IMG/VR virus record: IMGVR_UViG_2868569063_000004
Location: 32,001-96,000 of that record
Strand: one strand, 5' to 3'
Source: a virus
Lineage: Duplodnaviria > Caudoviricetes
Length of the DNA stretch: 64,000 bases
The notes beneath the pieces are model-generated. The model was not told the DNA's origin. It saw only the letters and a list, made by a program, of their open reading frames with translations, and searched no databases. Every line of letters starts with the position of its first letter. Within the stretch, counting starts at the first letter, position 1. The translations under genes and the position numbers were made by a program. Shown here piece after piece: positions 3,001 to 33,859 of this stretch.

Positions 3001-4740
3001 TTCTCTTACTTTTTCGGCATCGCCTTTAGTTTTGCTAGCCTTTGCTCCTTTCAGAGCATCTCTAACCCTATTAAGACTATCTTGATTCTCCCAAACAGTA
3101 TAAGCCTTATCATTGTCATCGTATTCAGTATGAGCAAAACCAAAAGCTTCGGCTAAAGTACCTTTAGTCCAGAAGTCGCTTTGAGAAATATCTGCTATAG
3201 ACTCAAGGACATCATCTCTTCTTGCAGCAAATTCTCTTACAGTTTCCTGGTCTTTAGGTTCCATTTCAAACAGTTGAGACCAAAGCTTTTGTTGATCTGG
3301 AGTAGCAGTAGCCATAGGGTTGACTACATTGTTACGGAGCCATGTGTCCATGTCTTTGCCGGATTCTTTAAAATTATTAAGCAATCTGGCATTGTCCGTA
3401 GAATTAAGCATATTATTCAACTGTGATTGAAATTCTGATGCTTTATCTTGATCGTCCCAGCTATCAAAAGAATCAATAGTACTTGCCATTGATTTGATAG
3501 AAGAAACCATTTCTCTTTTAGAGGCATCTATAGATTCTTGAGTATTAACTAAATTAGTATGAGCTTCTTGAAGTTCGCTATTATCTGAGTTTAAAACACT
3601 GGCAGCTTCACTATTAAGAAAATCTAACTGTTTACCATCAAATTCAAGAGTTATCTTTTGACCATCCGCAGATTGCTTATAACCTTTTATTGCTTTTCCA
3701 AATGTATTACCAAGTGCATCATATGCAGTTTGATCCAGTGTATAGGTGATGGTATCTTCTCCTTTTGTATGCTTTTTAAGCATGTCGGAAAATTTTTGTA
3801 CAGAATCAACTTTATATTTAGCTGCATCATATGCATTTTTGTATTCGTCTTGTTTGCCCTTATTCTCTCCTAAAGCAGTCTCATACCCTTTATACTGATC
3901 GCTAATATTTTTCTTTGTATCATAATAAGTAAGATTCCTCTGTAGCTTTAGATAATCATTGACCTGAGTGTTTAAATCCTCAGCATTAGTTCCTGCATTA
4001 AGAATAGCATTACCCTGAGAATCCCATGAACGTGTGAGACTAGGAGCAGCGGCAGCAATCTGATTACTCGTATCTAAGAAATCCTTATATTCATCATCTG
4101 TAAGACTAATATTTTTAATAGAATTACCGGATATTTTTACACCTTTGGACAATTCTGTGTATTTGGAAGTAAGTTCTCCAAGAGAAGCTTTCTGATCCTC
4201 ATAGGCTTTAGTTTGGGATTGAATGGATTCTTTTGCTTCTTGGCCTTTAGCAATTAAGTTCTCATTTTTATGAACGAAAGCGTCAATGCCTTTACCAAGC
4301 AATGAGAAAGCTCCTTGTACAAGCATTCCAACACCAGCAGAAATAAAAGCATTGCCAATCATTGAGAGACCAGCAGATGCCATACTTTTTAGACCATCGG
4401 ACCATTTGCCTTGTTTCTGTTGATCAGGTTTCTCCACCTCATTCTCTCTTTTAAAATCAGTGAGAGTCTTAGCATTAGTAGCTATTTGCTTGCCATAATC
4501 TTTGGCTCTTTGACTAGCATTCTTCGTTACTTCATTCGCTTTAGCCATACGTTGCTCGTTGTCTGTAATGGCCTGACCATTGTTATCAAGTTGCTTGTTA
4601 AGGTCTTTAAGAACTTCTAAATCATCTGAATATGCTTGATAATTTTTATTGGCTTCTGCATAGCCTTTTGCTATAGCAGCATTACGTTGAACTCTTCGTG
4701 ATTGTGGTAAAATTCCTCCATCTTCATTCTTGGCGAAAAC
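1..4740 (-). CDS. Tape measure protein, exon 2 (runs off window; absent from ORF track)
   Basis: Frame starts VFAKNEDGGILPQ at 4740; spot checks at 4380 (ASAGLSMIGNAFISAGVGML) and at 60-1 (ELMQAQSTANSKG) are open in the same frame. Ala/Ser/Lys-rich helical composition; no Shine-Dalgarno upstream; joins exon 1 in frame after splicing. Confidence 0.85.
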
Positions 4741-4758
4741 CAAACTGTGTGATATAAT
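4730..4758 (+). promoter_or_regulatory. Sigma-A-type promoter for intron cargo, straddling the 3' splice site
   Basis: TTGGCG-17 nt-TATAAT with extended -10 TG; upstream of SD AAGGA and ATG at 4803. Confidence 0.6.
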
Positions 4759-4802
4759 ATAGCAAATCTTAATTACTATATATAATAAAAAGAAGGAACA
4801 AT

Positions 4803-5309
4803 ATGGAAGAATTATTATTTTGCAATAAATGTGGAAAGACCAGTACATCTTCTTCTTATAAAATAGGGGATAGATGTTATACCTGTGAAATTGGAACCTA
4901 TATAGGCACTGGTATTGATTGGTCTACAGCATATATGGAGTTATCAAAAGAATATGAGAAAACTCATGACGGTCATTGTCCCAGTCATTTGGAATCATCT
5001 GAGATATTTAGGCAAAAATATTTTTATGGAAAGTTAGACAATGAAGTAGATTACTCTGCCGTTAAAAAAAGAAAATATAGTGAATCTCCTGAAGGAATAG
5101 AAGAGCAAAACAGGATAACAGATAGATGGTATGCCAAACAGAATGCTCAGAAATTCTCTACTGGGCCTAAGTGTCCAATCTGCGGCAGTACAAACCTTAA
5201 GAAAATCACTGGAACAAGAAAAGCAATGAAGATAGGTCTGTTTGGTCTTTTTGGAGCTGGTGACCTTGGTAAGACTTATCAGTGCTGTAAGTGTGGAGCT
5301 AGATTTTAA
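4803..5309 (+). CDS. Zinc-ribbon protein (intron cargo)
   Basis: 168 aa; CxxC pairs at the N-terminus and in the C-terminal PKCPICGS...YQCCKCG; SD present. Confidence 0.8.
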   Translation: MEELLFCNKCGKTSTSSSYKIGDRCYTCEIGTYIGTGIDWSTAYMELSKEYEKTHDGHCPSHLESSEIFRQKYFYGKLDNEVDYSAVKKRKYSESPEGIEEQNRITDRWYAKQNAQKFSTGPKCPICGSTNLKKITGTRKAMKIGLFGLFGAGDLGKTYQCCKCGARF

Positions 5310-6226
5310 TGAACATACCTGTAAATGCTAAAAGACAATTAGATAAAAGAGATATATATTGTATCTACCGGAGACCCAAAAAAGATAAAGATATATGCAC
5401 TTTACCTGATAGGCATTATTGTCAAATGTGTACGGCTAGACCACAGACAACATGTCGCTTAAAGGTTTCTCAGTATCGAAATGAACTAAATGCTCGCAAT
5501 AACAAAAAAGAATATCTTTTTGGTGTAGAAGTAGAACATGTTAGTAAAATTGATAAGAAGCTGAAACCAGCACAACATTCATTAAGCTCATTTACGGAAA
5601 GTTCTTCAAAAAATGCCAGTACAAGAACGTACAACTTGAATCATAATACTGTAGGCTCATATATTGATTATGGACCCAAATGGGATATTAAAAATTGGGC
5701 TGATTTTAAATATAAAGAAACCGTATATGTATTTAAGGGATTTTTGTATTGTGCAAAACATCATTCTGATTCATTGAGTCATGGACAAGTTATTATAAGA
5801 AATTTAAAAGGTACTAAAGAAAAGCATAGAGTAAATTTAATTTATTGTGCTAAGTGTAAAAAGTATTATATTGATGAAAGCCATTATAAAGATTTTATAA
5901 GACAGAAAGTATTGCTTGATTTTAGGATTAGGGCAAGCCATTCTCGTGGATATGGCTTTGGCGGATTCAAATCTGAATCTGAGTTACATCTTTATGGATA
6001 TAATGCACAAAGCTCTACACCTAAGTCGGTACGACAACAAGTTTTGTATGATGTTGTTTCCAATAGGTTAATGCGTGTAGAGGTTGTTATTTCACACTTA
6101 CAAGGACTCATTTCAATAAATGAATCAAGAAATGATAGAGCTACTGTTATCAAGCGCTACCGAGAAGATATGGATTTTTTATATGAGAAATTTCCAGGAG
6201 TAAGTATGGAATATAGAACCTTATAA
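5309..6226 (+). CDS. Hypothetical protein with Cys/His clusters (intron cargo)
   Basis: 305 aa; TAATG overlap with upstream gene; CQMC, CAKH and CAKC motifs. Confidence 0.75.
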   Translation: MNIPVNAKRQLDKRDIYCIYRRPKKDKDICTLPDRHYCQMCTARPQTTCRLKVSQYRNELNARNNKKEYLFGVEVEHVSKIDKKLKPAQHSLSSFTESSSKNASTRTYNLNHNTVGSYIDYGPKWDIKNWADFKYKETVYVFKGFLYCAKHHSDSLSHGQVIIRNLKGTKEKHRVNLIYCAKCKKYYIDESHYKDFIRQKVLLDFRIRASHSRGYGFGGFKSESELHLYGYNAQSSTPKSVRQQVLYDVVSNRLMRVEVVISHLQGLISINESRNDRATVIKRYREDMDFLYEKFPGVSMEYRTL

Positions 6227-6227
6227 C

Positions 6228-6332
6228 AAGAGCTTTAAATGTAATACGTGCGGATATACATAATGATAGTTTATGAGCAATTTAATCATAATCTGCCGGA
6301 AGTGCGGTTACACATGGTGGCTAAGAAGATAA
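6228..6332 (+). pseudogene. Two remnant C-termini of zinc-ribbon genes
   Basis: KSFKCNTCGYT* (6228-6263) and IICRKCGYTWWLRR* (to 6332) resemble the C-terminus of 4803-5309. Confidence 0.55.
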
Positions 6333-6863
6333 TTATGACAAATAAAATACTCTATCATCAATAATATCACATAATTTTTGTGTTTCAATTTCATTTTTTA
6401 ATAGGAAACATTTTCTTTTATCAAATATAAAGTAAAAGATTGTTTTAACATACAAGACAAAATATTTAAATTTTCTTGTAATAAATCTTTTATTCATATA
6501 AAGAGATGTTTTTATGAAACGAATTTTGCATTTGGAGGAAATATTTTTCATGGATGAATTCTTTCGTAAAATATTAAATGATTTTGTAGATGAGTATAAT
6601 CAACAGAATATATAAAATTTAATGAACTCACGTTCTGGATATACAAAGTTGTCGAATATTGTTATTATACTACTAGGTATATTATGGTTATAGGTGCTGC
6701 ATTATAACTCGCTGCACGATAATATACTTGATCATTTCTTTTGATCATGCAGAAGTGTTGGCATACATTCTGTATTGTTGATGCGGACGAAGAATCTGCC
6801 CGTTCTGGGCAATACACTTCCCCAATAAAGAAATTTATAAGGGAAGGGGGTGAAAAGAAGAAT

Positions 6864-7049
6864 ATGAATACTGGAATAATAATATCTCTTGGTAGTCTTT
6901 TACTTGTTGTAATATTAGCTGGTCTATATTATAACTCGAAAAATCATACCGTTGATCAAATTTGCAACCATCCAGAATTATCTGATGAGAAAGTCAAATT
7001 TATCACCGGAATGATGAAAAGACAATACAAGAATAAAAAAGTTGACTAA
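6864..7049 (+). CDS. Small single-TM membrane protein (intron cargo)
   Basis: 61 aa from MNTGIIISLGSLLLVVILAGLYY; G-rich SD; followed by hairpin at 7121. Confidence 0.65.
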   Translation: MNTGIIISLGSLLLVVILAGLYYNSKNHTVDQICNHPELSDEKVKFITGMMKRQYKNKKVD

Positions 7050-7120
7050 TCGCTAATAATGTTCTACTTTATCATTTAATTACTTCGTCATATGTATTTC
7101 TCTTTTTAAAATTTTTAATA

Positions 7121-7152
7121 GAAGGAGAACTGTCACAGCAGTTCTCCTTTCT
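7121..7152. terminator. Hairpin terminator between convergent cargo genes
   Basis: AAGGAGAACTG-tcacag-CAGTTCTCCTT. Confidence 0.65.
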
Positions 7153-7224
7153 GTGCACCAACACTTTGCATAATACTATAGGAAAGTTAACAATCTCGAC
7201 TGCATTGAATACAACCGAAAAAGA

Positions 7225-7395
7225 TTATTCGTATAAGTCATATCCTGGGAGTTGATTAGCAATTTCTTTTGGGTAATTACTGATAAATTTTGTTCTGCCA
7301 ATATCACTGATTTCTATAAGTAAATCTGTAATTTCGTTTGAGCTTAGATTTTGAATATATTCAGGAACTAATCTATCAAAAATGTTTTTATCCAT
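7225..7395 (-). CDS. Small hypothetical protein, 56 aa (intron cargo; not in ORF track)
   Basis: MDKNIFDRLVPEYIQ...GYDLYE*; SD AGGTG. Confidence 0.55.
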   Translation of the reverse strand: MDKNIFDRLVPEYIQNLSSNEITDLLIEISDIGRTKFISNYPKEIANQLPGYDLYE

Positions 7396-7440
7396 TAAAT
7401 ACACCTACTTTCAAAACTATATTATGGAGGTTTAAAGATT

Positions 7441-7551
7441 ATGGAAATATTAGAATGTCCTCTTTACAAAGAGTGTAAAGAAGAGGAATGTCCGTACTTT
7501 GAAAATGAAGATTGTACGTATTATACTAAGAAAGAGCAGGAGACTGAATAG
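7441..7551 (+). CDS. 36-aa Cys-rich peptide (intron cargo)
   Basis: MEILECPLYKECKEEECPYFENEDCTYYTKKEQETE*; SD GGAGG at 7426. Confidence 0.55.
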   Translation: MEILECPLYKECKEEECPYFENEDCTYYTKKEQETE

Positions 7552-7564
7552 TCTTTTGCTCTTT
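7531..7564. terminator. Possibly bidirectional terminator inside the intron cargo
   Basis: AAAGAGCAGGAGAC-tgaata-GTCTTTTGCTCTTT. Confidence 0.6.
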
Positions 7565-7659
7565 TGATGAATTTTGTAAGTATGTTTTATAAGTATCACA
7601 AGTAATACCTCTTATAACAGGAGAATCAATTATCTGACTTTTCTCTTTGCTAATAAACA

Positions 7660-8124
7660 TTAGCTCCAATTTACTCCCCATGATGTTACCTCCTCGAAAG
7701 TTATTTCTGGGAATATTTTCTGAACAACAGAAAAAGTAGTTAGTTTGACTTTTGTTTCATTTGTTTCTTGAAAATAGTAATGCACTAATTCTTCAATAAA
7801 TGCGAATAGTTGCATGTGTTGATTGTTAGATGTAATTATCCGTTCCATGGAGTATACTAAAAAAGACATACATCTTCCATAAGTGGTTGCTTCATTTTCG
7901 GTGACAGAAAAACTGCCATCTTTTGTAAATATTAGACTTACAGGAAATAATTTAGTAGGATCAATATTTTTTTCATATAAATGTTTGCTTAAGGATTCTA
8001 ATCCTTTAGTAAACAAATTGGCCAGTTCCTTTGACATTTCATAAGTTGCATTCATAAATAAGCATCCGTCAAAATATGGCGGAGCAATTGGTGCATAAGT
8101 TCTGATAGAATTATTTATTATCAT
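7660..8124 (-). CDS. Hypothetical protein, possible metallopeptidase-like fold (intron cargo)
   Basis: 154 aa; SD AGGAGG; EELVH resembles a degenerate HExxH motif. Confidence 0.7.
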   Translation of the reverse strand: MIINNSIRTYAPIAPPYFDGCLFMNATYEMSKELANLFTKGLESLSKHLYEKNIDPTKLFPVSLIFTKDGSFSVTENEATTYGRCMSFLVYSMERIITSNNQHMQLFAFIEELVHYYFQETNETKVKLTTFSVVQKIFPEITFEEVTSWGVNWS

Positions 8125-8586
8125 AGTTTTACCCTCCTATGTGAAATATAGCATAGAAGAATAATAAAGTAAAGATTTGTGCTTACATCACCTTTGCACA
8201 TAAGGTAAGATTGCTCACAAGAATAAGATGTATTTACCCTTTAATTTATTCGGCGTAAGCTGCCTAACAGTCCTGACTATTCCTTCTTGATCCGGAGACC
8301 AAGTTCCCATTATAGTCGATGAACGTTCTTCTCTATAAAATAAAGAAGCTTCGCTGCAGACCACCCATATATATACATTGTTACTATATCTATTACATTA
8401 CTGTAGTAGGGGAGTAGTATATACTTCGGTTCACCCTGAATGCCAAATTAAAAGCATTTCTCTATTCCTTCGAATAAAGACAGTTTCGGTTGTTTGCTTA
8501 GTAACCCCTTTCTCATATGAGATCGTTCCGTGTCACCACCAGGTTACATGGGGCGTTTTCTAAAGGACCAACTGATAATTTGTCCC

Positions 8587-11118
8587 ACCCCAGTTCATAG
8601 CATGGCTAACAAGCATACCGCCGACTCCGGCTAAGGATTTATTAAGTCCCAAACCATTTAAGAGCCCTACAGCGCCGTTGCCAACATCAAGCAATCCTTT
8701 AAAAGTATTAGTACTACCTTCTGATTGCCATAACTGTGACCAAGATTCTTTAATTTTAGTTGTTTTTGCTTCGATAGAATCAAGGTATGTATTAAGCTCG
8801 TTCTGAGCTGAATTTTGATAATTATTTGCGGAATCATTATAAACATCTGTAAGCAATTCAGGATGCTGCAATATGGATGCAAGAATATTACTTCTATTTT
8901 TTCCTGCCATCATTTCAAGCAGAGCAGCCTGTCTATTCTGACCATCTGCCAAATCTTGCTTACCAATATCATCCCAAACCTGAGAGATATCTTTTAAAAT
9001 ATCATAAGTATCTCTATAGTTTCCATTCATATCAAGAATAGAAACTCCAGCCTTACCGTTAACGGCAGTAAGAGATTTAATATTTGAATTAAGTTTAGAA
9101 GTGGTCTCTACAAGACCTTCTGTATCTTCACCCATAGAAGATAATTCTTCAGCAGAAGTGCCTCTAAGTCGTAATGCAATTGTTCTAAGACCAGCACCTA
9201 CCTTCGATGGATCCTGCACTACACTATTTGCTGCCGTAACAAGAGCAACTGACTTGTCAAAGTCGTTCCCCGCTGCTACCAATGCTGAACCTGAATCCTG
9301 TAAAGCAGTGGCAATTCCGTCTGTAGAAATTGCATAGTTGTTACCAACAAGATTCATTTTATCAACGAGATCCATAGAATCATCAACTTTTACGTCGTAT
9401 GCTTTCATCATGGAAATCATAGCGGTTGTTGCATCATCTATAGATCCGAATTCTGATACATTTTTTAAAATACCTGTATTTTTAGCTAAAGTCTGAGATT
9501 CATTTAAGCTATATCCAAGACGAGAAAAATCAGCAGCACTACTAGTAATCTGAGTGGTTGTACTACCAATGTCTTTGGCATCAGTTCTAGCCTGAGTAGT
9601 AAAGTCTCTATATTCTTGTTTTGTACCATCTGATGTTTTCTTAAGTTCAGTCATCGCTGAATCTAATTCTTTTATTGATTCGACACCGGATCTGACACCT
9701 GTTGTTAATGCTTGGAATCCAAAATTACTTACAAGATACTGGCTAAGACTACGGAACTTTTGTCCCATTTCAGAAATATAACTAGATAAAGGTTTTACAC
9801 TTTGAGTAACTTTAGTAAGAGATTGGTCAATATTACCTGGACCATTTTTATATGCTAATTGATATTTTTCAAATACACCAGACCCTCTATCAATAGTAGC
9901 ATACATTTTACCTTGTGCTGCATTAAACTCTGTTGTGTATTTGCTTCCTTTTGCCAGATCTGCTGACATTTGTTCCATCTTAAGACGGACCTTATCAGAT
10001 GCTGGATCTAAATCTGTACCAATATATTCTGAACGGCTATATTTATTTGGAATACGTGAGAAAAACTGATTAGTATTACCGAGATACCTAGCTTGACGAT
10101 TGGCTTCAGAGCGAAGAGCAGCAAAACGTACTTGCTCAGTGTCTCTTTCGTCTCCAGTAAGAGTCGCAAGACTATCACGAGATTTTTTTAATTGCTCATA
10201 TGTATCATTGAAAGATTTTAATCTTTCATCATAACCTTGTCCTAGAGTTTTATCTAATGGTTTACCATTGTTAGGATTATATACTTGAGCCATTTTATTG
10301 AATGTCTTCTGTTTCTCACCCAAATTAGTGATAACTTTGTCGTATTCTGAAGCACTCTGAGTCATTGCTTTGTATGCTTCTTGATTCTTAGCCTGTGCTC
10401 CTCGAATGTCAGATGCAGAAGTAACCCAATCAGAAGCAGTACCTTGATTTTGTATCTGTCTAGCCAGCTGAGAATTTCTATGTCCTATAGTTCTCTTTGA
10501 CTGTTTATAAGTACTTTCATCAATAATCCCACTTACATACTGTTCCTGTAGGGTTCCTATTGTCTTCATATTTCTCTTAATTTCAGCTTGAGCTTGTCTA
10601 AGAGTAATGCCTGTAGATCTTGCAGTATTAGAAGAACTAGTGGTTTCTCCAACAACTATTTTACCGTCTTTAGTTTTTATATTGTCTCCAACAGTAAGCT
10701 TAATAGAGCCCATGTTTTTAGCTGTAGATTTTATTTCATTAAGTTTGGCTAAAAGTCCATCAAGCTCCCCCATAATACCTTGATTTACGGAAAGTTTTAC
10801 TTCTCCTAGATCAAGCTTGTCCTGGTACCTTGACAGCTTACTGACTGTATTAGCCATAGATTTTAAAGCTTCTTCAGGATTTACCATCTGTTCTACAAGA
10901 TTAGATCCTTTAATAACAGGAGTATTTTTAGCGGCTTTGGCAGTTGCTTTACTTATTGTTTTTACCGCTGTCTGTGCATTTTTAGTTAACTGTTTAGTAT
11001 TACCTAATTCCACACCTAGTTTAATGTGCTTCTCTTTTAAAGAATTAATTCGTGTTTCTAATGCATTTAGCGCACTGTCTTCAACTTCTACACCAACGTT
11101 TATTATATAATCAGCCAT
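8587..11118 (-). CDS. Tape measure protein, exon 1 (844 codons; TP901-type core)
   Basis: ELDSAMTELKK...DFSRLGYSL...KVGAGLRTIALRLRG core; follows the tail genes. Unspliced ORF runs 8 codons into the intron. Confidence 0.92.
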
Positions 11119-17772: not shown

Positions 17773-18852
17773 TTATTTAAGTGTCCAAACTCCGAAACGC
17801 TTTCCAATAATTGTGGCCACACCCATTTTAATCTGATATTCATACTCAATAGTTTTATCCATATTTGTATTTCCATCAGATACTTCTTTAATCTGAGCGT
17901 CGCCTTCATTGTAGATCTTGATAAATTTGTTATCAGCTACTGGCATAATCAGAAGTTTAGTATTATCTACTAACTTTTTACTTGTGTCATTGTTAGCAAA
18001 TCTCTGTGGAATTTCAACAAGACGAATACCTTCAAACATACCTAAACGGCCTGTAGTGTGTCTTTCATCTTTCATTGCATTAGATACCCAAGTAATATCT
18101 TCCATAGCAGAAAGTTTTGCAAGAGCAGATTTGGTACCCATAACAACTACTTCATCACCTGTAGCCATCTGTACATCTTCAATCAGAGTCATAAACTCAT
18201 CTTTTGTAGCTGCTGCAAGTGTACCTGTCTTATTAAACTGTGTAGACGGGAGAACCTTCTCACCTGCTGCCATTACAGCCGCATATACCATATCGTTAAT
18301 TTTCTTGTCAAAAGCTTCATAGATTTTCTGTACGAATCCAGCCCAGTCAATACGACCTGCCATAAACAGCTCATATTCTGCGTAAATTTTAATTCCATAC
18401 CATGAGGTTCTAACAGAGAATGTCTGTCCTTCTGCCAGACGCTGTCTAATAATATCATGGTGATTACCGGAAAGCTCAGACACTGTCAGAATAACTTCAT
18501 CTGGTACATAAAATTCATTAGTATCACCGTCAGCCATAGATTTGATTTCTACAAATTCATTGAAGAATGGGTTTTCTCCCCAACCAGAAACAAGCAGATT
18601 CTCTACTGTCTCTTCGATAATTTCAAATACATCAATTTTATGTCTACGAATAGCTTTTCTAAGTTCTTTTCTTGAGCAGTTTTCATCTACTCCAAGTACA
18701 GAGAACATAATCTCTCTGATTTTATTATTAGCATCTTTTGTAGATACTTTTTCTTCTCCCTTAGCTGTGTCAAACATAAGCTGGGAGTACTCTGCATAAT
18801 CATTTTCAGCAAAAATATTTCTTACTTCATTACTTGAAAAATTAAGTTTCAT
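17773..18852 (-). CDS. Major capsid protein
   Basis: 359 aa; follows scaffold and decoration genes; terminator downstream. Confidence 0.8.
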   Translation of the reverse strand: MKLNFSSNEVRNIFAENDYAEYSQLMFDTAKGEEKVSTKDANNKIREIMFSVLGVDENCSRKELRKAIRRHKIDVFEIIEETVENLLVSGWGENPFFNEFVEIKSMADGDTNEFYVPDEVILTVSELSGNHHDIIRQRLAEGQTFSVRTSWYGIKIYAEYELFMAGRIDWAGFVQKIYEAFDKKINDMVYAAVMAAGEKVLPSTQFNKTGTLAAATKDEFMTLIEDVQMATGDEVVVMGTKSALAKLSAMEDITWVSNAMKDERHTTGRLGMFEGIRLVEIPQRFANNDTSKKLVDNTKLLIMPVADNKFIKIYNEGDAQIKEVSDGNTNMDKTIEYEYQIKMGVATIIGKRFGVWTLK

Positions 18853-18870
18853 TATGTATTCCTCCTTTCA

Positions 18871-19344
18871 TTAACCAATTGTCAGCTTTTTGTCTGCTAC
18901 AGTTACAGTTGCACCTTTAGTAGGAGTACCACTAAATCCTTCAGATGATACTTCAAACACATCACCTACATAAAGCTCATATGCTCGAACGATGTCACCA
19001 TTTGCGTTATAGAAATTACTTTCATGTTTAAGAGCGGTAGTATATTCTTCGTATAACATTGGTACCTGGAGCAGTAACAGAGCATCTCCTGGTGTTTTAA
19101 CTTCTACATACCAATTTCCGTTAGCTGCTTTATCCAGTACTACACCAGCAAAACCAGTAGATTCTTTAGCTTTATAAGTCTCCGGTTTGATATAATCGCC
19201 TTTTGCAACAATTGATCCGTTGTCCAGATCTTCTTCAATCTGAATGTTATAAATATGACCTGCAATAGTAGCTTTCAGCTTAGAGCTACCAGCAACAGCG
19301 TGTTTTTCAGCAGTGGCCATAAATTTCTGAAAATTAGATGCCAT
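18871..19344 (-). CDS. Putative capsid decoration protein
   Basis: 157 aa, beta-rich; between scaffold and capsid. Confidence 0.6.
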   Translation of the reverse strand: MASNFQKFMATAEKHAVAGSSKLKATIAGHIYNIQIEEDLDNGSIVAKGDYIKPETYKAKESTGFAGVVLDKAANGNWYVEVKTPGDALLLLQVPMLYEEYTTALKHESNFYNANGDIVRAYELYVGDVFEVSSEGFSGTPTKGATVTVADKKLTIG

Positions 19345-32866: not shown

Positions 32867-33859
32867 CGACTTAACACCTTATGTTTCCATAAGGACTAGA
32901 CTATATCTTCATCTGTAGCTCTATCACCAAGATACAGATGCTCGGCACTTCCCCTGCGAGGATTCCACTCACAAGGTACTCTACTTGCTTCTTTACTTAA
33001 GTATTTCTCTTAAGCTATGCTTTCGATAGTCGTTAAACTTTTCTCATTATTGAGACTTAGCACAGTATTGTCTTTGGAAAAATAGTATGTGTGTTTATAT
33101 ATGTTACCTGTTTCTATATAATATGGGATTCTTCCTGCTAGACCTGCCGGAGATGAAGAAGAGTGCAGTTGTTTCAACACATATTCTGCGCATAACTGCA
33201 TGTATGGAAAAGTTGCTATTACATTTTTGTCTTTATCTAACAAACATACTGGAATAGCTCTTCCATTCTGTCCTCCGGGACGAGATTGTTTTTCTTTTGA
33301 ATATGCAGGATCAGCTTTGTACTTCTGACTGAGTGTGGTGTTTCCGTAGTTGGGATTTTTCTTGCCACTATAATCTAACGTCTGCGAAGCATGTCTGCCA
33401 GCAGCGAGAGTATAGTCAATATTTTCTTTATGTGAACACCATTCTAAGTTATCTACACTGTTGTTTGTGCGATTGTAATCTTTATGATTTACTTCCGGTA
33501 AATTTAAAGGATTAGGGATAAATGCTTTTGCTACTAATCTATGAACACTGGCAACTGTTCTGTTTCCTGTTTTACCGACAGTAATACACATGTACCCATC
33601 TGAATTCATACGTTGTTTTATTTCCTGATGATATTTCGCTCTACCACGATTATGAGTACTAAATATTTTTCCATCTTCACGAACTATGTAATCAATACCT
33701 TTTACATTTAAAATTCTTTCTTCTATTGTTCTCACCTTCTTTTTTATAATCTATTTTTCCAATAAGAGTTCCACTGTTAGCCCGGTACTTCCGGACACCT
33801 TACATTTGTAAGTTCACCGAGTTTTACATATACATCGCTGTATAAGGTGACAGAGTTTT
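32867..33859 (-). ncRNA. Group I intron (993 nt) in the RNA polymerase gene
   Basis: P1 GUGAU/GUCAC with U-G; P7 strands at 33031-33026 and 32904-32899 (AAGAUAUAGUCU); P9 CCUUAUG-GAAA-CAUAAGG; terminal G. Confidence 0.92.
33010..33735 (-). CDS. Intron-encoded HNH homing endonuclease
   Basis: VHRLVAKAFIPNP...VNHKD...NNSVDNLEW; 3' end overlaps the intron core. Confidence 0.92.
   Translation of the reverse strand: MRTIEERILNVKGIDYIVREDGKIFSTHNRGRAKYHQEIKQRMNSDGYMCITVGKTGNRTVASVHRLVAKAFIPNPLNLPEVNHKDYNRTNNSVDNLEWCSHKENIDYTLAAGRHASQTLDYSGKKNPNYGNTTLSQKYKADPAYSKEKQSRPGGQNGRAIPVCLLDKDKNVIATFPYMQLCAEYVLKQLHSSSSPAGLAGRIPYYIETGNIYKHTYYFSKDNTVLSLNNEKSLTTIESIA

Follow-up and report, generated by a model that had tools for sequence, protein, structure and literature searches.

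A candidate group I intron with exchangeable multi-gene cargo interrupts an SPbeta-like prophage tape measure gene

The tape measure protein (TMP) gene of an SPbeta-like gut prophage is interrupted by a 3.85-kb insert that is probably a spliced group I intron. The prophage is represented by the 122.9-kb IMG/VR record IMGVR_UViG_2868569063_000004, and bases 32001-96000 of this record constitute the 64-kb window analysed here; coordinates refer to the window, and the TMP gene is read on its minus strand. The insert (8586-4741, minus strand) begins with a ribozyme-like block, shares the layout of the IStrons, and holds cargo genes that are swapped among related phages. The initial annotation of this stretch had proposed a landing pad for accessory (moron) genes. 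Exchangeable cargo and a constant ribozyme block in about 25 related contigs agree with that proposal, but the P3/P4/P5 region of the ribozyme is degenerate and we infer splicing from sequence comparison.

Results

Two long frames are consecutive parts of one tape measure gene

The uninterrupted N-terminal TMP open reading frame (ORF) runs from 11118 to 8560 on the minus strand (852 amino acids), its stop lying nine codons past the residues ...AMNWG; the 844 codons up to and including these residues constitute exon 1 (8587-11118), of which U8587 is the last base. This ORF matches PF10145 PhageMin_Tail (1.4e-18) and the tape-measure family phrog_4211 (1.5e-64, profile positions 172-922 of 2625), and its residues 445-838 align with residues 326-686 of YomI, the 2,285-residue tape measure protein of SPbeta. 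A second very long minus-strand frame extends from 4848 off the window start. Exon 2 occupies this frame from 4740 to 1 and continues 3,969 nt past the window start to a total of 2,903 codons, the full length being taken from contig L123. Residues 111-309 of the exon 2 frame align with YomI 708-903. Because both halves map in order onto YomI, the two frames are consecutive parts of one SPbeta gene.

Uninterrupted homologues of 2,400-4,250 residues are numerous, and both halves align in order in 32. For three of these proteins (P0015, P0010 and P0077), a single BLAST alignment spans the virtual junction, with NWG/VF opposite GSGFF or GGIF. Both marks of a phage tape measure gene of the TP901/SPbeta YomI type, the PhageMin_Tail domain and collinearity of the halves with single-ORF TMPs, are thus present. 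Relatives of the locus were collected as about 20 IMG/VR contigs with the TMP gene together with ENA and Logan assemblies, about 25 contigs in all; blastn against the INPHARED phages returned no match, and a scan of GTDB genomes with TMP peptide patterns recovered no relative. The insert sits at the same site in all of the approximately 25 contigs, none of which has an uninterrupted copy.

A guide sequence pairs with both exon ends

Exon 1 ends in ...AAC UGG GGU and the insert starts with GGGAC..., followed by a small hairpin and then by the internal guide GAAAACGCCCCA (8549-8560, minus strand), which is invariant in relatives. The guide consists of a P10 strand, GAAAAC (8560-8555), and a P1 strand, GCCCCA (8554-8549). 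The P1 strand forms six of six pairs with the exon strand UGGGGU (8592-8587), the closing pair being U8587.G8554, which places the 5' splice site after U8587; UGGGGU is the same in 19 of the 19 relatives compared. The P10 strand likewise forms six of six pairs with GUUUUC (4740-4735), and the terminal intron base, G4741, directly precedes exon 2. The insert therefore has the P1 with its U.G pair, the P10 and the terminal G of a group I intron. The predicted ligated junction, ...AACUGGGGU-GUUUUCGCC..., reads NWG/VFAK in frame. The ...AMNWG end of the TMP ORF at 8587, the 12/12 match of the guide to the junction, the G before 4740, the P7 helix and the NWG/VFAK reading had all been described in the initial annotation, and each could be read directly where it had been placed.

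Between 8586 and 3000 (5.6 kb), the minus strand contains the sequence GGUUUUY (GGTTTTY) a single time, at 4741, against a window background of 0.11 per kb. Four distinct 3' ends are found among relatives (...UUUG, ...UCUG, ...AACG and ...UUCG), in which the terminal G is constant and the two preceding bases vary. The insert closes with a conserved 3' terminal element (4741-4790, minus strand), a hairpin with UUAAGAU in its loop followed by the terminal G4741; the stem is compensated in L017 (AAAUG/CAUUU vs AUAUAG/CUAUAU). Across the intron family the guide and both exon ends are identical, except that the sixth base of exon 2 changes from C to U and still pairs as G.U. Since these positions are invariant, guide/exon covariation cannot be scored within the family; the sole instance is provided by another intron lineage, found at a similar site and described below.

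The catalytic core is homologous to compact phage introns

The 411-nt block that adjoins exon 1 (8176-8586, minus strand) is constant, with 96-100% identity in every relative even where the exons are at 67-91%. It comprises P1, P2, two hairpins, degenerate P3/P4/P5, Q, P6, R/P7, P3', P8, J8/7, S/P7' and two post-P7 hairpins. We compared it with a covariance model, R1, built from five compact IMG/VR phage introns (L096, L101, L103, L104 and L108) that were recovered with a degenerate pattern covering R and S; three of the five (L096, L103 and L104) score 62-82 bits with the Rfam model RF00028, and no sequence of the TMP intron family was included. R1 matches 8272-8392 (minus strand) at 40.2 bits, with an E-value of 1.7e-6 across the 64 kb. 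The window contains one further R1 match only, an intron in a putative polymerase gene (20.8 bits), and relatives of the TMP intron score 37-44 bits. The match takes in Q UCUGCAGCGAA, P6 (8348-8328), R GUUCAUCGACUAU and P7, which pairs GACUAU (8317-8312) with AUAGUC (8280-8275); its 3' part holds P3' (8308-8304, GGGAA), P8 (8303-8297/8292-8286), J8/7 (8285-8281, AAGGA) and S. Because R1 finds these elements in the window and in relatives, Q, P6, R, P7, P3', P8, J8/7 and S are homologous to bona fide group I introns.

The compact introns and the insert have in common Q UCUGCAGCGAA, R GUUCAnnGACUAUAAU, a short P3', one P8 hairpin, J8/7 AAGGA and S AUAGUC, with order and spacing preserved. Whereas the compact introns measure about 200 nt and have canonical P3, P4 (UUGCAG) and P5, the insert has a mismatched P4, a 36-nt AU-rich stretch for P5, about 170 nt of extra 5' hairpins and a 3.4-kb tail. 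Among relatives of the TMP intron, Q, P6, R, P7, P8, S, P1 and the guide are constant, the P6 stem being preserved by a compensated change (CUUCUUUAU/AUAGAGAAG in the window vs CUUCUC/GAGAAG in relatives). An exact search of IMG/VR with a 22-mer of the R element recovered the same TMP locus only, with no copy at another insertion site.

An Rfam search of 4000-9500 at E<=1 returned nothing. In a narrow search, RF00028 matched 8253-8432 (minus strand) at 17.1 bits (local E 0.055) and placed R and S at the same positions; over the 123-kb genome, the TMP site was its second-best match (E 0.003). For calibration, the three RF00028 matches of SPbeta score 92, 41.8 and 36.9 bits, two of the three under the gathering score of 50 bits. 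The group I assignment of the initial annotation is thus upheld by the independent R1 model, but not by RF00028 at its gathering score.

A degenerate P3-P5 region and the reading frame of exon 2

Several observations weigh against a functional intron. The P element is CUACAG in the window, AAUUACAG in most relatives and AAAUUGCAG in the intron class, and its alteration makes two of the P4 pairs non-canonical; P3 consists of four pairs, and the 36 AU-rich nucleotides in the P5 position form no stable helix. A thermodynamically better fold, GCAAACAACC/GGGUGGUCUGC, is broken by a G-to-A change in most relatives. Sequence variation in the ribozyme block falls mostly in 8444-8360, the supposedly essential region, and the RF00028 score of 17.1 bits misses the gathering score. 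The P9.0 helix (8273-8267/4748-4742) listed in the initial annotation exists, but a pairing of this length is matched by about 10% of random intron 16-mers and does not exceed chance; 85% of cargo windows reach a core-to-tail duplex energy at least as favourable, and a strong antisense promoter and two hairpins separate the core from the 3' splice site. Strong conservation of the intron could stem from recent spread and not from selection on catalysis. The IMG/VR record is classed as a provirus with an estimated completeness of 76%, and splicing itself is a prediction from comparative sequence evidence. The chief doubt is catalytic competence, and it arises from the degenerate P3-P5 region.

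Three alternative P3-P5 pairings were considered, none of which was well supported by energy and variation. A 9-bp match between GUGAUGUAA (8191-8183) and UUAUAUCAC (4758-4750) was rejected as a long-range pairing, being ordinary when compared with random intron windows; its 3' strand, UUAUAUCAC, also complements the -10 region of the promoter of ORF168, the cargo gene next to the 3' splice site.

The degenerate P3/P4/P5, the low Rfam score and the variation concentrated there would also fit a ribozyme that has decayed, leaving a split gene whose halves are separate proteins, exon 2 being translated from an unrecognised start, or make no functional tails, with an accessory-gene island in the gap. 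The window variant has an in-frame TTG directly before the junction and an ATG 36 codons upstream, and gene callers annotate the C-terminal part as a separate gene. However, a Shine-Dalgarno-like motif was found within 120 nt upstream of exon 2 in no variant, and between the upstream stop and the junction the L017, L019, L114 and L117 variants, which represent four variant classes, have no in-frame ATG, GTG or TTG. Because the terminal G is constant and the two bases before it vary, the TTG used by gene callers is not conserved as a start codon; the same position reads CUG, ACG or UCG in other variants. Coding constraint begins with the first exon 2 codon, from which the residues VF.KN..GG[IV]LP..R are conserved with synonymous differences and a dN/dS of about 0.5.

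The exon 2 frame is open for 2,903 codons, which replaces the 'at least 1580' of the initial annotation, while the lack of its own Shine-Dalgarno sequence reported there stands. Stop codons between 4740 and 1 had been named there as refuting the intron, and there are none. In more than 20 diverged relatives the frame is open for at least 1,800-2,760 codons. Together with the invariance of Q, P6, R, P7, P8, S, P1 and the guide, these observations make a dead intron unlikely. Spliced at the predicted junction, the 844 and 2,903 codons would encode a product of 3,747 amino acids.

The insert is modular and its cargo is exchanged

Across relatives the insert varies from 1.7 to 3.85 kb in length. 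The block 8586-8176 and a 3' module with the antisense gene ORF168 are always kept, and the region between them is variable: module B (8175-7544), which contains ORF154, is present or absent, and module C varies. Module D (5311-6619) is an insertion of about 1.31 kb with ORF305 (5309-6226, plus strand) that behaves as a precise indel, being absent from all IMG/VR relatives and occurring in L117-L119 and run X1. On either side it is bordered by a 10-bp direct repeat, TTTAATGAAC (5305-5314 and 6618-6627, plus strand), which occurs nowhere else in the window. The repeat includes the ORF168 stop and an ATG, and the insertion of module D (ORF305 and a 72-residue ORF) keeps translational coupling. 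The contigs of run X1 are a DNA relative with other cargo modules and contain no exon-exon joint. In L117, the intron is 97% identical to that of the window and the flanking exons only 67-70%, which indicates, by sequence comparison, that the element has spread horizontally together with a short stretch of exon sequence.

SPbeta-like elements are gene-splitting DNA elements, and SPbeta itself splits spsM in this manner. Excision of the 3.85-kb block from the prophage on induction, which would restore the gene at the DNA level, has this precedent, and the direct repeat around module D could be taken in its favour. Yet the cargo contains no recombinase or transposase, the outer boundaries carry no repeats, and no empty site occurs in the approximately 25 close relatives or in run X1, where a junction-matched group I core is present instead; we regard DNA-level excision as highly improbable. 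An intein, a group II intron and recombinase-mediated excision were rejected on the basis of in-frame stops, the lack of a reverse transcriptase or recombinase gene, and the lack of boundary repeats.

The cargo begins at 8175, after the post-P7 hairpins, and displaces the 3' splice site to 3.4 kb past the core. It holds at least six unrelated ORFs on both strands. On the sense (minus) strand lie ORF154 (7660-8124), which has a strong Shine-Dalgarno sequence and matches phrog_33355 (2.6e-8, no functional assignment), and ORF59 (7225-7404), followed by a hairpin at 7149-7122 and belonging to a family found in seven elements. On the antisense (plus) strand lie a gene for a 61-residue single-pass membrane protein (6864-7049; family F07, in five elements), with a strong Shine-Dalgarno sequence before an internal ATG, and ORF168 and ORF305. 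The hairpin at 7149-7122 stands where sense and antisense genes converge, and a 16-bp hairpin lies at 7530-7565.

ORF168 (4803-5309, plus strand) is the sole cargo gene present in every variant (48-93% amino acid identity). It has 117 homologous clusters and, in TMP contexts, always adjoins the 3' splice site. An AlphaFold2 model (pLDDT 84) predicts a helical bundle flanked by two zinc ribbons and found no match in a Foldseek search against the PDB. The family also occurs outside any TMP gene: L120:4903-7959 (also L121 and L122) carries three tandem ORF168-family paralogues and a 399-residue ORF, in an island that also holds an integrase, a resolvase and a SprT-like gene. The well-folded C-terminal domain of ORF305 has 704 representatives, some of them fused to dsrm (dsRNA-binding), RNase III-like or Macro domains; its model had no Foldseek match in the PDB and only generic helical matches by VIA-align. 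In several relatives a HEPN pEK499_p136 (PF18736) gene directly follows the ORF168 homologue (L016:12689-13285, minus strand; L114:6565-7062, plus strand). Because it occupies the slot held by ORF305 in the window, this arrangement suggests a two-gene module of ORF168 and a swappable effector.

The initial annotation had counted at least six cargo ORFs on both strands and recognised no HNH, GIY-YIG or LAGLIDADG endonuclease among them. Searches of Pfam, PHROGs, NCBIfam and PADLOC agree: the cargo ORFs have no family match to a homing endonuclease (LAGLIDADG, GIY-YIG, HNH, PD-(D/E)xK or EDxHD), and there is no transposase, recombinase or PADLOC defence family among them, phrog_33355 being the sole family match. 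The ORF168 and ORF305 models matched no nuclease fold.

A predicted sigma-A type promoter, TTGGCG-17-TATAAT with a TG extension (4730-4758, plus strand), would drive ORF168. It straddles the 3' splice site, with the -35 box in exon 2, and is the best promoter-like site of the region (10/12 matches); the -10 box and a TRTG motif are conserved in all four 3'-end variants. The initial annotation reported promoters and terminators in the cargo; the counts of promoter-like and terminator-like sites equal the shuffled expectation, and this plus-strand promoter and two hairpins stand out.

A further alternative to unassisted splicing in cis is that the weak P4-P6 domain is stabilised by a cargo-encoded protein or a host chaperone, or that the core and the 3' element are transcribed separately and splice in trans. 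The retention of ORF168 in all variants, weak P4 and P5, the hairpins at 7565-7530 and 7149-7122, which could end transcripts, and the conserved 3' terminal hairpin with its compensated stem would fit such schemes. On the other side, no sense-strand promoter stands out ahead of exon 2, core-to-tail complementarity is at background, and the ORF168 family also resides in the integrase/resolvase island outside introns and resembles no known maturase. We consider assisted or two-piece splicing improbable.

Further introns in this phage group

A second TMP insert of about 1.8 kb, also a group I intron and absent from the window, is found in exon 1 of L018 (11001-12772), L019, L020, L117 and L118. 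It lies 318 nt upstream of the first site, after ...GCAGGU, equivalent to window 8905/8904, and has the elements Q UUUGCAGCGAAG, R GUUCAACGACUAGA and S AACAUAGUC, which RF00028 misses; it encodes a small ORF and a 377-residue ORF with HTH_7/HTH_40/Myb-like domains. Window and L117 become highly identical only some 50 nt past this second site in the downstream direction, a transition that could mark a co-conversion boundary. Elsewhere in the window, a group I core at 32877-33107 (minus strand; R1 20.8 bits) is the genome's best RF00028 match (41.8 bits at 32877-33036), and its host gene we take to be a YonO-type RNA polymerase gene. That this phage group has group I introns at other sites favours the intron reading of the main insert.

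Past the TMP homologues P0002 and P0009, which seem to end near the junction, 1.1-1.2 kb contain no gene before a large ORF that gene callers start at a TTG. In these more distant TMP genes the gaps correspond to ORF-less group I-like introns of 1.15-1.25 kb (L124:17455-18600 and L125:~17802-19044). Their core has Q AAUCCGCAAG, P7 GAACAU/AUGUUC and a long A-rich stretch between P1/P2 and the core; their P1 is a 7-bp helix, CGGUGGU/GCCACCG, ending in U.G, with a P1-extension hairpin that covaries between the two contigs. The 3' end is UGUUUG/AUA, the bases after it pair with the guide, and this guide fits different exon ends, which provides the covariation mentioned above. The called TTG start corresponds to the last three intron bases. 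P0002 and P0009 belong to further interrupted genes and not to natural two-gene arrangements.

R1 also matches at 24-29 bits 8.5-10 kb upstream of TMP in L004 (1295-1445 and 40-139), L017 (463-613) and L016 (438-590). These may be introns in other virion genes; the window has no equivalent upstream R1 match at E<=1. In the virion gene block of a distant relative, an R1 match of 21.5 bits (L125:1963-2077) lies directly upstream of a 334-residue ORF with a faint LAGLIDADG_3 signal.

Discussion

The initial annotation had contrasted this element with phage group I introns of DNA-metabolism or late genes that carry at most one endonuclease ORF, a baseline that proves too narrow, as TMP introns (PMC2504315, PMC10448857) and IStrons (PMC4227781) are already published. 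Group I introns interrupt Bacillus cereus-group prophage TMP genes at three sites, TMP-IVS1/2/3 (Tourasse & Kolsto 2008, PMC2504315), and Vibrio phage ICP1 has a TMP intron bearing a homing endonuclease gene, the splicing of which was shown by RNA (PMC10448857). Like these, the element described here is a group I intron candidate in the TMP gene of a tailed phage or prophage with a site-matched P1/P10 guide; some TMP-IVS/ICP1 copies also have no complete homing endonuclease and spread passively with phages. The TMP-IVS and ICP1 introns are of ordinary size, belong to IA1/IA2 and carry a lone endonuclease gene, what is left of one or, in just one ICP1 isolate, two such genes. In contrast, the window element places 3.4 kb with at least six unrelated genes after the core, has no P7.1/P7.2, and bears a load that varies by phage. 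The bnrdE/bnrdF introns likewise reside in an SPbeta-type phage, but in DNA-metabolism genes and with at most one endonuclease ORF.

IStrons combine a 5' group I core with multi-ORF cargo of up to about 2.6 kb downstream of P9 and are spliced in vivo (PMC4227781). The arrangement in CdISt1 and BcISt1 (PMC4227781, PMC3984707) is that of the window, with the core at the 5' end, cargo past P9 and the 3' splice site kilobases off. The IStron core is of the IA2 type with P7.1/P7.2, whereas in the window the P7 strands are separated by 31 nt that hold P3' and one P8 hairpin. As cargo, IStrons bear a transposon of the IS200/IS605 or IS607 type, through which the element moves; the window cargo is unrelated to insertion sequence (IS) elements, includes antisense genes with their own promoter, has no transposase or TnpB by Pfam, PHROG and NCBIfam searches, and stays at a fixed insertion site. 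New here are the size of the insert, the lack of a recognisable endonuclease or a transposase, the multi-gene cargo on both strands with its own promoter, and the exchange of cargo among phages.

Taken together, a model for the element emerges. The 5' 411 nt would fold as the ribozyme, its guide pairing in P1 (with the U.G pair) to the last bases of exon 1 and in P10 to the first bases of exon 2; the 3' splice site would lie after G4741, at a distance of 3.4 kb from the core in the downstream direction. In lytic growth, transcription of the late operon would cross the entire element, and the polymerase responsible is probably a YonO-type enzyme encoded by the phage itself. [quoted passage not shown] It is highly processive and lacks the flap domain, on which multisubunit polymerases depend when they pause or terminate at hairpins (PMC5467207); because of these properties, a YonO-type enzyme could, by analogy, read through the cargo hairpins. 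Splicing would then join 844 and 2,903 codons for a tape measure protein of 3,747 amino acids. Between its post-P7 hairpins and its 3' terminal element, the intron would offer a tolerated storage bay for sense genes and an antisense operon. The latter (ORF168 and its swappable partner, under their own sigma-A promoter) could be active in the prophage at times when the late genes are switched off, and cargo modules would be exchanged by recombination.

A broader proposal, which we advance tentatively and consider somewhat more doubtful than not, is that, in a lineage of SPbeta-like gut phages, a self-splicing intron in an essential late virion gene acts as a heritable, exchangeable cargo bay that requires no homing endonuclease or transposase. 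Inserts in such a bay would be silent for tail assembly, and antisense accessory or defence-like operons, housed within the otherwise silent late operon, would be expressed in lysogeny and swapped by recombination; the cargo might bring some benefit.

If the element is spliced, a bacterial-virus group I intron carries kilobases of unrelated, independently transcribed genes and offers a neutral docking site in an essential gene, a role documented so far only for IS elements, in IStrons, and for endonuclease genes. 'Split' TMP annotations with a TTG- or ATG-started second half would then be artefacts, and tail length would be predicted from about 3,750 amino acids. The element would also constitute a natural design for hiding cargo in essential genes, and a system in which to ask how a ribozyme with a degenerate P4-P6 locates its 3' splice site across 3.4 kb.

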